Origin: a virus
Taxonomy: Duplodnaviria > Heunggongvirae > Uroviricota > Caudoviricetes
Virus record (IMG/VR): IMGVR_UViG_2541047938_000006
Reading direction: 5' to 3' (one strand)
DNA length: 64,000 bases
Part shown: in pieces, positions 35,501 through 38,500 of the stretch
Layout: every line of letters starts with the position of its first letter
How positions within the stretch are numbered: position 1 is the first letter of the stretch
Position numbers: made by a program

Positions 35501-38500
35501 CGGATATGTTTGGTGACCGGGTCGATCACGGCGGCAGTATCAATATTCTGACCTCTCACCGCCCTTCACCGCTGGCAAAGGGAAACCCGTCGCACAGCAA
35601 TCTTGTCCAGATCGAAAAGGTTTAAGGAGTAGCCCATGACCACACAATATGGATTTTTTATCGATTCCAGCCGCTGTACTGGCTGTAAAACCTGCGAACT
35701 GGCGTGCAAAGATTTTAAAGTTGGTTACGTATCGTTTAAAATCAATTAGATAGCCCGTCATTTCTGCGCTCACACGTCCCAACATTGAAAAACATGCAAA
35801 GCTTTGTAAGCCGATGCAAAGCTTTGTGTGTCTCACTTTTGTCCCAATACCAATCCGAATCCACCCTTTGTCATCATTGAGAAATGGCAAGGAAGAAAAG
35901 GATGTTACTGCACGATTTGACAAATCCGCCAGAGCTATCGCATACTGATCGCACTGAACAAATAAGCGGTCTCCGCACCCGATAGCTTTGCGGCTTTTTT
36001 ATGCCTGCAATTTGGCATAGTTACATCCGTACAAAGGTCGGGTGGAGAGGCGTAATACAACACCCGCAAGGGGAATATGCCCAGAGCTTCTTATTTGGCT
36101 CAGTTGACACCCGACCGCCAGCTACTAACTGGCGGTTATAAACTAAACAAATAAGGAGGTCATCATGACCAGTCAACTCATCCCCGTATTCAACGGTTCT
36201 ATCTCAAACCAAGCAGCCCTTCTATGCAATGCTCGCAATCTACACGCTTTCCTTGGGGTTGGTAAACGCTTTGCATCGTGGATAACAGAACGTATTGCTG
36301 AATATGGTTTCGTTGAAAATCAGGACTATATGATTGCTTCCCAAATTCGGGAAGCAAAAGGTAGAGGCGGTCACAACCGCAAGGAATACCACCTCACCCT
36401 CGACACAGCCAAAGAGCTTGCGATGGTTGAACGTAACGAAAAAGGTCGCCAGATCCGCCGCTACTTCATCGAGTGCGAAAAGAAACTTCGCAACATTCAG
36501 CCAGTACAAGCAGAACCACAGCCGCAATTCACAGCCGAGGAAATCATCCTCCTTTGCTACATGCAGCTCTGGATGGAAAAAGCCCAGGACCTCAGCAAAC
36601 ACCTGTATCCCATCATGAAAGAGCTGAACTCCTCATACACGAACAAGCTGTATGACATTGCGTTTGAGACCATCTACATGGTGACGAAGAACAGAGATGC
36701 GTTACTGAGGGAAGTAACACGTCTCGACATGTCAAGTTCCGTTATCCAGCGGGCCATGCCAATGCTGAAAAGCCTGCGGGCAAGACAATTTGAATTCTGA
36801 AACCAAAGGAGCTTCGGCTCCTTTTTTCATGCCTGAACGACAACGCCGCTGAAATCGAAGAGTTAATACAATAAAGAGAAGAGCTCAGTACATTAGATAA
36901 ACATTTTTTATCATTATCTCATTGCCTTTATTCAAAAAAATAGTTACATAACGTTACTAGGTAAAATGCAAACCCTCGCTATTTTTATCAGATTGTATGC
37001 CGGTAACTATAACAAAAATCAGAACTGGAGAAGATGTTTTGTCAGCAGCCATTCACCGCATTGAATGGTTGTTTGAAACATTCTCTTCTGTATGTTTATC
37101 TTTTTCTGGCGGTAAAGATTCCACTGTACTTTTCCATCTTGTAGCCGAAGTGGCCTACAGGAAGAAACGTCGTTTTTCTGTATTGTTCATTGACTGGGAA
37201 GCCCAGTATCAATGCACCATTGATCATATACAGAAGATGCGGATGATGTACCAAGATGTAACAGATACCTTTTACTGGGTTGCACTTCCCCTGACGACAG
37301 TAAATGGTGTCTCGCAGTTTCAGCCTGAGTGGATATGCTGGGAGCCCGGTGTAGAGTGGGTTCGACAGCCACCGGAAGATGCTATTACTGATATGGCGTA
37401 TTTCCCCTTTTACCGCTACGCCATGACTTTTGAAGAATTTGTCCCAGCTTTTTCTTCCTGGTTCGCAAGTAACCAATGTAGCGTGGCAATACTGACTGGA
37501 GTCCGCGCGGATGAATCTCTTAACAGATTTATGGGACTGGTTTCCCAACGAAAACTGAGATATGCAGATGATAAACCCTGGACCACGGCGTCACCTGAAG
37601 GTTTTTACTACACCATGTATCCGCTGTATGACTGGAAAACCAACGATATCTGGGTATATAACGCTAAAACCTGTGCAATCTACAATCCTCTGTATGATTT
37701 GATGTACCGTGCAGGCATTCCTCTACGTAATATGCGTGTCTGTGAGCCTTTTGGCCCGGAACAGCGTAAGGGACTATGGCTTTATCATGTTCTGGAGCCA
37801 GAAACTTGGGCACGGATGTGTGAACGAGTATCTGGTGCTGCCAGTGGGGCTCTTTATGCCAATGAAAGCGGGGCCTATTTTGCCCTGCGTAAACGGATGT
37901 CAAAACCATCCCATCATACCTGGCGCAGCTATGCGTTCTTCCTGCTGGACGTAATGCCGGAAAGAACGGCTGAACACTACCGCAACAAGATAGCAGTCTA
38001 CCTGCGCTGGTATCAGAACCGGGGATTCCCGGATGATATCCCGGATGAACAGGAAAATGATCTGGGCTGCCGGGATGTTCCCTCCTGGCGACGTATTTGT
38101 AAGACTCTCATAAAGAATGATTTCTGGTGCCGAACGCTCTCCTTCAGCCCCAACAAACCCCGGCACTATGAACGTTACCTGCAGCGTATGAATGAAAGGA
38201 GGAAGGAATGGGGAATTCTGTGACACCAGAGGTGGAGGTGCTGAGCAAGATGATTCGACAGTACTTCAGTCAGGAACAATCTGAAGAGAAAACCATACAG
38301 GCCCTGAACCATCTCCGCTGCGTACTCCATGAGATCAGCCCCTTTGCTCAAGAACCAGTGGACTGTGTGCTGTGGGTAAAAGCGGATGAAATTGTCGCTA
38401 ACGATTATAATCCCAATGTCATGGCCCCAAGCGAAAAAAAATTACTGAAACAATCTCTGGAAAAAGACGGTTTTACTCAACCAATTGTTGTTTCGGAAGA

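Follow-up and report, generated by a model that had tools for sequence, protein, structure and literature searches.

The window analysed here, a stretch of DNA of 64,000 nucleotides, contains the passage from the ynfEFGH-dmsD operon into a prophage. The last whole gene of the operon upstream of the insertion is ynfF, which is followed by a truncated ynfG (ynfG') whose reading frame passes into phage DNA. The features of the region are as follows.

33199-35625, plus strand: ynfF, subunit of selenate/tellurate reductase; open reading frame of 808 amino acids, annotated as ynfF in strain G1/2
35636-35749, plus strand: truncated ynfG'; 28 native codons to 35719, nine phage codons, TAG
35704-35713, plus strand: GTGCAAAGAT, probable host-side half-site, includes GCAAAG
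35714-35720, no strand assigned: core TTTAAAG, common to attB, attL, attR and the deduced attP
35721-64000, no strand assigned: int-distal part of a short-tailed lambdoid prophage of 933W/phiPOC-J13 likeness, extending past the end of the window
35776-35781, plus strand: GTCCCA, candidate arm-type site, the P-arm site nearest to the core; offset +114/115 relative to the stop codon of int, in seven phages
35792-35831, plus strand: 17-bp stem-loop with both ATGCAAAGCTTTGT copies in its arms, probable terminator
35830-35846, plus strand: GTCTCA (35830-35835) and GTCCCA (35841-35846), 11 bp apart, at offsets +168 and +179
36165-36800, plus strand: antirepressor of the AntA/P22AR type, first prophage gene past the junction (Pfam AntA, E 2.7e-26, and P22_AR_C)

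Positions 35636-35720 match the start of the uninterrupted ynfG of strain EC11 (locus L002) at 100%, and the identity ends at 35720. The native part of the gene at the junction consists of 28 codons and the first base of codon 29. Beyond it lies prophage sequence, which supplies nine further codons (VGYVSFKIN) and a TAG stop at 35747-35749. This agrees with the original prediction, made from the sequence alone, that a prophage is inserted in ynfG and that the native N-terminus runs for about 28 codons and then diverges to a stop. The tail of the truncated YnfG (...CKDFKVGYVSFKIN) was also recovered in another analysis. In the sister genome, strain G1/2, which is 99.8% identical to the window in the region of ynfF, ynfG' is annotated as a partial "4Fe-4S binding protein". 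The predicted separation of ynfEF from the remaining part of ynfG and the genes downstream was also found, the two parts lying about 62 kb apart in G1/2. The sequence TGCAAAGATTTT is indeed present at the junction (35705-35716), but it is native to every uninterrupted ynfG and represents host DNA rather than phage.

The window holds the int-distal end of this prophage of Shiga-toxin type, which in the lambda convention is the P-arm side; the integrase end and the region that would carry any stx lie beyond the window. Over the 106 nt of the arm that were compared (35755-35860), the window and the ends of phages POCJ13 and 75/02 show 100% identity, and the POCJ13 record stops precisely at the first phage base of the junction. 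The window prophage has in common with the phiPOC-J13 type, then, both a junction in ynfG at the same nucleotide and an identical phage arm. The integrase gene, measured in G1/2, is 99.5-99.9% identical to those of phiPOC-J13 (KJ603229), 75/02 Stx (KF766125) and PhiR5_2 (PV340546), and for phiPOC-J13 and 75/02 Stx the integration site is likewise ynfG. Unlike these three phages, the window prophage has a mosaic body, with an antirepressor region just 85-98% identical.

Of 5426 complete E. coli genomes, 55 carry an identical attL. Its counterpart attR, in which a POCJ13-type integrase gene adjoins the 3′ part of ynfG, followed by ynfH and dmsD, was seen in G1/2 and in 89 genomes, and its carriers include O104:H4 outbreak strains. 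The original prediction had named misassembly as the finding that could overturn it. We consider it practically impossible that the break in ynfG is an artefact of assembly, because attL and attR recur in these 55 and 89 independent complete genomes. No evidence favouring such an artefact was found, and site-specific entry of phiPOC-J13 into ynfG has been demonstrated by PCR (PMC4193171). The use of ynfG as an integration site by phages of the Stx type is already published: phiPOC-J13 inserts in ynfG of MG1655 and in its homologue S1742 of Shigella flexneri (PMC4193171), phage 75/02 integrates in the ynfG homologue (PMC5447701), and the Stx1a prophage of strain RM10410 sits within ynfG (PMC10562709).

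If the insertion is site-specific, then we can ask: Which bases do phage and host have in common? The three-way comparison of attL from the window, attR from G1/2 and attB from EC11 showed that these sites have the 7-bp core TTTAAAG in common. The second junction with a common core, which the earlier reading had called for, was thus found at the other prophage end in the sister genomes. Of the proposal that an att core lies near GCAAAG, the shared core at the junction stands, but GCAAAG itself belongs to the host sequence GTGCAAAGAT. At base level attB is GTGCAAAGAT-TTTAAAG-ATCTTGGCCC, where ATCTTGGCCC, whose reverse complement is GGGCCAAGAT, mirrors GTGCAAAGAT on the far side of the core in 8 of 10 positions. 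The flanks of the core in attP match as an inverted repeat at 5 of 10 positions, and identity between attB and attP is 14/25 to the left of the core and 7/25 to the right. A short core common to attP and attB with inverted flanking sites, which is a feature of P22-type attachment sites, is therefore present here.

Both attR and attP were deduced from sister genomes, the closest complete one having 99.1% identity across 92% of the query. A free phage record with intact attP did not turn up, all records of the ynfG type being cut at the junctions. The excised circle would be expected to carry an attP that reads ...GAGCAACAACTTTAAAGTTGGTTACG... (longer, ...GGTGAGCAACAACTTTAAAGTTGGTTACGTATCG...), and the repaired chromosome an attB that reads ...GCAAAGATTTTAAAGATCTTGG... 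(longer, ...GCGTGCAAAGATTTTAAAGATCTTGGCC...). TTTAAAG is probably the overlap region of strand exchange and GTGCAAAGAT probably the left (B) core-type half-site of the integrase; we infer both the cleavage positions and the binding role. Recombination would occur between attP and codons 26-29 of ynfG across this 7-bp overlap, and the inverted repeat of GTGCAAAGAT and ATCTTGGCCC around it in attB probably forms the core-type half-sites.

The cognate P22-family Int and Xis genes are present in the sister genome G1/2. Here the integrase gene has 99.5% DNA identity with its POCJ13 counterpart and about 71% with those of P22-like phages, while the protein is 72% identical to the Int of phage L and 87% to that of 2G7b. 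A P22-type Xis (72% identical in amino acids) overlaps the start of int, and the Pfam matches in this module are Phage_integrase and HTH_17. The int-xis-attP module of P22, like that of phage L, ST64T, epsilon34 and SfV, has a homologous Int (72%), an Xis overlapping int (72%), the same five offsets of GTCCCA-type motifs and, 136 nt beyond the stop codon of int, the same hairpin. Homology of the distal arm extends to the arms of P22/L, epsilon34, 2G7b, SfV and ENT47670. The difference lies in the central part of attP: P22 uses thrW and epsilon34 uses argU, whereas the ynfG phage is not tRNA-like there and shares its 7-bp core with a gene that encodes a protein, so that the target is inactivated on integration and not restored. 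The idea that the phage rebuilds ynfG was rejected, as the phage-derived frame at attR (QVVSNNFK) has an in-frame TAG upstream.

The repeats announced in the original prediction 60-110 bp inside the prophage are real: ATGCAAAGCTTTGT occurs twice without mismatch, at 35794-35807 and 35814-35827, 74-107 bp from the junction. No further copy with two or fewer mismatches was found elsewhere in the window. A shuffle control allowing 2 mismatches reached two matches in 17 of 100 shuffles and so carries no information on the pair. By calculation, any particular 14-mer would recur exactly about 0.0005 times over 128 kb of two-strand sequence, and the pair recurs in homologous phages; for these two reasons we do not attribute it to chance. 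Each copy contains the palindrome CAAAGCTTTG, and therefore the copies pair into a 17-bp stem-loop with a T-rich tail after it.

The match to a terminator comprises 17 pairs, a 6-nt loop and the tail CTCACTTTTG, and is non-canonical because this T-tract is interrupted. The free energy of the hairpin is -22.7 kcal/mol (z -5.0). The two strands fold alike (-18.2 vs -18.6 kcal/mol) and have the same T content after the stem, so the plus-strand RNA was dropped as the designated active form. Base pairing is kept in 88-91% of cells versus 19-59% in slid controls, and 3-4 pairs carry double changes. Compensatory changes from C-G to U-A and from U-A to C-G occur in 9 BLAST-derived homologues and in 52 unique variants, the latter gathered by a pattern fixing 21 columns, which inflates their apparent conservation. 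The hairpin is kept in P22, epsilon34, SfV and HK75, and the records of phages L and SfII annotate a terminator at this place. Rfam gave no family above the gathering threshold; its sole match, mir-19 (26.2 bits vs 50), reflects generic hairpin resemblance. A stable stem-loop with a T-rich tract, pairing kept in evolution and, in the loci with P4-type integrases, a position just past the end of a gene are features of terminators that the hairpin shows. The hairpin is most likely an intrinsic terminator for int, possibly acting in both directions, and it is possibly also a sib-like element for int.

The original prediction took the ATGCAAAGCTTTGT copies for arm-type binding sites of the prophage integrase. 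They are direct repeats in an att arm, 74-107 bp from the core, and a third ATGCAAAG occurs at -72 in the int-proximal arm. This third copy was rejected as a site: it is in the coding sequence of int (EDAKKA, then the stop) and is unconserved in relatives, 2G7b having GATATAAAG and P22 nothing comparable. Arm sites are expected to follow the integrase family, and the ATGCAAAGCTTTGT copies do not. The same hairpin stands 11-27 nt past the stop codon of full-length P4-type integrases, which have 22% identity to P22-type Int over 117 amino acids, and in these loci no P22-type Int or Xis was detected. Because it directly follows unrelated P4-type integrase genes, the hairpin is no integrase-specific arm site. 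In SEN22 the integrase is about 78% identical in DNA and all five GTCCCA-type positions are kept, yet the repeats are replaced by unrelated sequence, which forms no significant hairpin (z -0.44 and +0.42). In HK75 the spacing between int and the hairpin differs (224 nt), and GTCCCA motifs are absent. We therefore regard the repeats as hairpin arms, and their role as arm-type sites as highly improbable.

Better candidates for arm-type sites are the GTCCCA-like motifs, to which integrase would bind. The motif GTC(C/T)C(A/G) is found at -51, -40, +114, +168 and +179, counted from the stop codon of int, in the seven phages compared (the ynfG phage, P22/L, epsilon34, 2G7b, SfV, ENT47670 and SEN22). 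Repeated motifs thus stand at kept positions on both arms, three of them in the window (35776, 35830 and 35841), and the offsets +168 and +179 are fixed in all P22-family attP sites examined. The assignment of the GTCTCA/GTCCCA pair is ambiguous, because the same tail accompanies the hairpin beside P4-type integrases: it may represent the distal arm-type sites, the T-rich end of the hairpin, or both. Judged from sequence alone, AATCAATTAGATA (35740-35752, plus strand), which falls between the core and the arm-type motif closest to it, is a candidate IHF site with one mismatch to the consensus WATCAANNNNTTR. The literature searched yielded no map of P22 arm-type or Xis sites, primary footprinting work being outside its coverage.

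The GCAA motif recurs in the element with a 10-bp period, and the hairpin arms are themselves palindromic. A plain terminator needs neither property, and therefore a role at the DNA level, for Xis or a CII-like protein, may coexist with termination. In lambda, the P2/X1 arrangement with the X1-X1.5-X2 array beside an integrase arm site resembles the layout of the int-distal arm. The repeats might accordingly be P22-type Xis sites, a head-to-tail array of TGCAA with a 10-bp period, besides or instead of a terminator, and we hold this to be rather unlikely. GCAA stands at 10-bp spacing (columns 9-12, 19-22 and 29-32 of A2), the element is on the int-distal arm and adjoins GTCTCA/GTCCCA, all class-A phages examined encode a P22-type Xis, and excisionases are known to bind tandem repeats spaced one helical turn apart (PMC7498355). 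However, the element is equally conserved in loci without a detectable P22-type Xis, and SEN22 has no repeats at the corresponding position. In 2G7b and SfV the N-terminus of Xis is near-identical, yet the repeats have diverged, with pairing kept over repeat identity.

The epsilon34 record and paper interpret the place otherwise, as two CII-type sites TTGCN6TTGC activating gtrA (PMC2629481). This proposal was the only one that turned up in the literature on TTGCN6TTGC or retroregulation. Such a pair of CII/C1 sites on the minus strand would drive a promoter for the establishment of lysogeny, and the minus strand does read TTGC-N6-TTGC-N6-TTGC in P22/L and TTGC-N6-TTAC-N6-TTGC in the window. 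But the middle repeat in the window is TTAC, the orientation of TTGC faces away from gtrA, the proposed target, inspection of the sequences across context classes revealed no conserved -10-like hexamer about 13 nt downstream, and the promoter scan gave no site at the element. We consider such a pair of CII/C1 activator sites very improbable. It is conceivable, though doubtful, that the stem-loop is a portable post-int element of unrelated cassettes, combining an RNA terminator or destabiliser (sib-like) with a TGCAA excisionase array in P22-type attP.

With a probability of roughly 0.8, we interpret the window as the int-distal junction of a phiPOC-J13-type lambdoid prophage, inserted in ynfG by means of a P22-family tyrosine integrase, the 14-mers being a probable terminator. 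In P22-type attP the stem-loop is situated between GTCCCA-like motifs, with exactly 136 nt between it and the stop codon of int, and integration parts it from int, as with tI/sib of lambda. There, a terminator and an RNase III site past attP are split from int by integration. The likeness is in position and logic only, a stem-loop downstream of int being moved to the opposite prophage end. No sequence homology was seen, and the stem-loop of the ynfG phage lies between, not beyond, the arm-type motifs. In the lysogen the stem-loop, 74 nt downstream of the ynfG' junction, would halt read-through from ynfEF before the antirepressor gene.

Little of this is new as to the site, which is published, or the recombination module, which is closely related to that of P22. 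What is of practical use is the base-level definition of the site, with its core, attB and an insertion left unrepaired. The hairpin, common to unrelated integrase modules, marks a recurrent mosaic boundary. The insertion cuts YnfG after residue 28 and, as measured in G1/2, leaves the remaining ynfG, ynfH and dmsD about 62 kb away, adjoining the integrase gene. As the phage does not repair it, lysogens, including the O104:H4 outbreak strains, have no intact YnfG, and their ynfH-dmsD is severed from the ynfE promoter. If the hairpin is a terminator, then it would insulate the antirepressor gene against host transcription. Should the dual-role interpretation be true, anaerobically induced transcription of ynfEF would stop before this gene, and transcription of int, which would then lack its terminator, could continue into ynfH-dmsD.

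The prophage junction at 35636-35830 is confirmed. The ynfG gene starts at 35636 and is identical to the uninterrupted ynfG of strain EC11 through codon 28 plus one base, after which nine foreign codons lead to a TAG at 35747-35749, much as the original prediction had described (about 28 native codons, then divergence to a stop). The attL product of 37 residues keeps only the first Cys group (CTGCKTCELAC) of YnfG, when intact a multi-cluster ferredoxin-type protein, and the 3' fragment of ynfG lacks this group. Rebuilding of ynfG by the phage is ruled out, since the phage-derived frame at attR of the sister genome G1/2 reads QVVSNNFK and has an in-frame TAG upstream. 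Of 5426 complete E. coli genomes, 5322 gave a match to a 901-nt query spanning the junction. Almost all of these matches broke off at query base 421 (window 35720) within an annotated intact ynfG; the full query was covered in only 55 of the 5426.

The window's own genome is absent from this set (the closest complete genome is 99.1% identical to the window), so we infer the far end from sister genomes. G1/2 is 100% identical to the window across the junction and 99.8% identical over 20472-36430. Its annotation there runs ynfE, ynfF, an 84-nt partial '4Fe-4S binding protein' and then phage genes: antirepressors, a PAPS-reductase/IbrB pair, a Panacea-domain protein, a giant LPD38 protein (~2790 aa) and tail-fibre genes. 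The prophage body is of the 933W/Stx-phage type. It ends ~62 kb further on in G1/2 with a site-specific integrase, directly followed by a ynfG fragment without N-terminus, ynfH and dmsD, which bears out the predicted integration within ynfG. A query for this second junction (attR) was covered to at least 80% in 89 genomes, including O104:H4 strains 2011C-3493, C227-11 and HUSEC2011, and was 100% identical in 12 of the 12 matches listed; misassembly as the source of the split gene is thus excluded. In the O104:H4 2011 outbreak lineage (e.g. NC_018658.1 2525543-2525942) the integrase-ynfG junction is identical over 400/400 nt, so ynfG is likewise interrupted there by a phage with this integrase.

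Both the integration event and the phage group, which uses a P22-type module, are already known. Site-specific integration of phiPOC-J13 into ynfG of MG1655 and the homologue S1742 of Shigella flexneri has been described (PMC4193171), the Stx phage of Shigella sonnei 75/02 targets the ynfG homologue (PMC5447701), and the Stx1a prophage of RM10410 is located within ynfG (PMC10562709). POCJ13, 75/02 and PhiR5_2 have integrase genes that share 99.5-99.9% identity with that of G1/2, and over the 106 nt compared the window's phage arm matches the ends of POCJ13 and 75/02 at 100%.

Attachment sites of the ynfG prophage
attB, uninterrupted ynfG of EC11: ...GGCGTGCAAAGATTTTAAAG ATCTTGGCCCGG...
attL, window: ...GGCGTGCAAAGATTTTAAAG TTGGTTACGTAT...
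attR, G1/2: ...GGTGAGCAACAACTTTAAAG ATCTTGGCCCGG...

In the three-way comparison TTTAAAG (35714-35720) was the only block common to attB, attL and attR, and this core is accordingly shared by both prophage ends. Lambda-family integrases use an overlap region of the same length, 7 bp. Beyond the core, attP and attB agree at 14/25 positions to its left and 7/25 to its right. In attB an inverted repeat surrounds the core (GTGCAAAGAT on the left and, as the reverse complement from the right, GGGCCAAGAT, agreeing at 8/10 positions), which would be the form expected of core-type half-sites. The three-way comparison and this repeat place GCAAAG, earlier proposed as the att core, in the left half-site as host sequence and not as the duplicated core.

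We reconstructed attP from both arms and compared it with those of P22/L, epsilon34, 2G7b, SEN22, SfV and ENT47670. The integrase of G1/2 shares ~71% DNA identity with P22-like phages, 76% with epsilon34 and 82% with 2G7b; its protein identity is 72% with phage L Int and 87% with 2G7b Int. The P22-type Xis (116 aa, 72% identical, Pfam HTH_17) overlaps the int start, as in P22. GTC(C/T)C(A/G) motifs lie at -51, -40, +114, +168 and +179 from the int stop codon, with the same offsets in all phages compared, and the two proximal ones, spaced 11 bp apart, are arranged in tandem within the 3' coding end of int. The strongest candidates for arm-type sites, to which the integrase would bind, are these motifs.

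Features of the phage arm in the window
35776: GTC(C/T)C(A/G) motif, candidate arm-type site
35792-35831: stem-loop with a 17-pair stem, 6-nt loop and tail CTCACTTTTG (consensus scan)
35794-35807: first copy of ATGCAAAGCTTTGT
35814-35827: second copy of ATGCAAAGCTTTGT
35830: GTC(C/T)C(A/G) motif, candidate arm-type site
35841: GTC(C/T)C(A/G) motif, candidate arm-type site

The predicted pair of tandem 14-mers is real: ATGCAAAGCTTTGT is present in exactly two copies, with no further ones in the window even when two mismatches are allowed. The palindrome CAAAGCTTTG lies within each, which makes the two direct copies complementary as well and lets them form the arms of a hairpin. As RNA it folds with a free energy of -22.7 kcal/mol (z -5.0; 0/200 shuffles folded as well). 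In nine BLAST-derived homologues 88% of pair cells are standard pairs versus 22-58% with the partner slid, and 2G7b and SfV carry two compensatory double changes (C-G to U-A, U-A to C-G). Among 52 unique variants from a pattern scan of viral contigs, whose conservation is partly imposed by the 21 columns that the pattern fixed, 90.8% are paired versus 19-59% slid, and no shuffle reached the observed covariation score.

The block is also present in P22/L, epsilon34, 2G7b, SfV and ENT47670, and on its own in HK75, HK542, mEp234, Stx2c phage 1717 and others. The proposal that the 14-mers are integrase arm-type sites does not hold, because the hairpin also occurs 3' of unrelated integrases and is absent between the SEN22 motifs. 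In many contigs it lies 11-27 nt past the stop codon of full-length integrases of another family (N-terminus MLTVKQI...GKKVWRMRY, C-terminus ...MMQWWADWLDEKVS), only 22% identical over 117 aa to Int of the ynfG phage; no P22-type Int or Xis was found in those loci. In these loci int points away from the edge and into the contig, so that the hairpin simply follows it. In HK75 the hairpin is 224 nt from int and GTCCCA motifs are absent. A third ATGCAAAG, at -72, was rejected as a site, being int coding sequence and not conserved. SEN22 keeps all five GTCCCA-type positions, with the 48 nt between motifs swapped for unrelated sequence of the same length that has no significant fold; its hairpin copy is found 300 nt farther along, behind the remnant of an int 3' end. 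In SEN22 (locus L007, ~3100-3260) and Stx2c phage 1717 (locus L009, ~1960-2075) the 3' end of a remnant P4-type integrase (...MMQWWADWLDEKV and stop) precedes the hairpin, both in the int-distal arm of phages using a different integrase. These remnants suggest that integrase cassettes were replaced in the past and that the hairpin is a mosaic boundary used repeatedly.

Most economically, the hairpin is read as a terminator located 3' of int, and those who deposited the phage L and SfII records annotate the block as such. Both strands fold equally well and have equal T content after the stem, so the hairpin may terminate transcription in both directions. A plain terminator would need neither palindromic arms nor the 10-bp GCAA periodicity, which leaves room for a role at the DNA level: the block could be a P22-type Xis array. 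The epsilon34 authors saw in it two putative CII sites along with a possible int terminator (PMC2629481); CII sites are less likely than a Xis array, as no conserved -10 element was seen on inspecting homologue and variant sequences.

In a P22-type attP the hairpin lies across the core from int, between the candidate arm sites, and integration thus moves it to the opposite prophage end. The lambda tI/sib is likewise moved, a likeness offered as an analogy only. In the lysogen 74 nt separate the ynfG' junction from the hairpin, and an AntA-type antirepressor gene begins ~330 nt farther downstream; at this position the hairpin could stop transcripts from the ynfE promoter before they enter the prophage. 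At attR no such hairpin follows int before the ynfG fragment, ynfH and dmsD, so read-through from int may occur.

Other features of the window were also recorded. A full-length match to Rfam sRNA-Xcc1 (RF02221; 36036-36124, plus strand; 69.1 bits, E 6e-12, gathering score 53) closely precedes the AntA-type antirepressor ORF (36165-36800) and may represent a 5' leader or small RNA tied to that gene. A promoter-like site, TTGACA-18-CATACT, is at 35917-35946. An uninterrupted 2792-aa ORF (39616-47994, minus strand), whose LPD38-domain counterpart is annotated as frameshifted in G1/2, has as neighbours the Panacea-domain protein (minus strand, 38941-39465) and a PAPS-reductase/IbrB-like pair (plus strand, 36997-38852). 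Positions 4834-25354 are taken up by a second prophage, defective and Qin-like, which was mapped by 99.8-99.9% identity to annotated G1/2, with relBE, hokD, cspB/F/I, essD, rrrQ, dicA/B/C, exonuclease and excisionase genes and an integrase at ~24074-25354 adjoining rspB. Two prophages ~10 kb apart thus enclose the rspAB-ynfABCDEF block. About 2 kb of G1/2 (locus L001 3162-5173, ydaT/dicC/dicA region) is missing from the window.

From the int stop codon to the hairpin there are 136 nt in the ynfG phage and in P22 alike, whereas the central attP segment is ynfG-like in the former and tRNA-like in the latter. Phage 2G7b (locus L004) and G1/2 (locus L003 2138-3301) have integrase proteins 87% identical and different targets, the core segment being tRNA-like in 2G7b and a 7-bp match to a protein-coding gene in the ynfG phage, and the central attP segment is swapped between them at constant length. 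These two phages are a compact natural pair for the study of core-specificity change.
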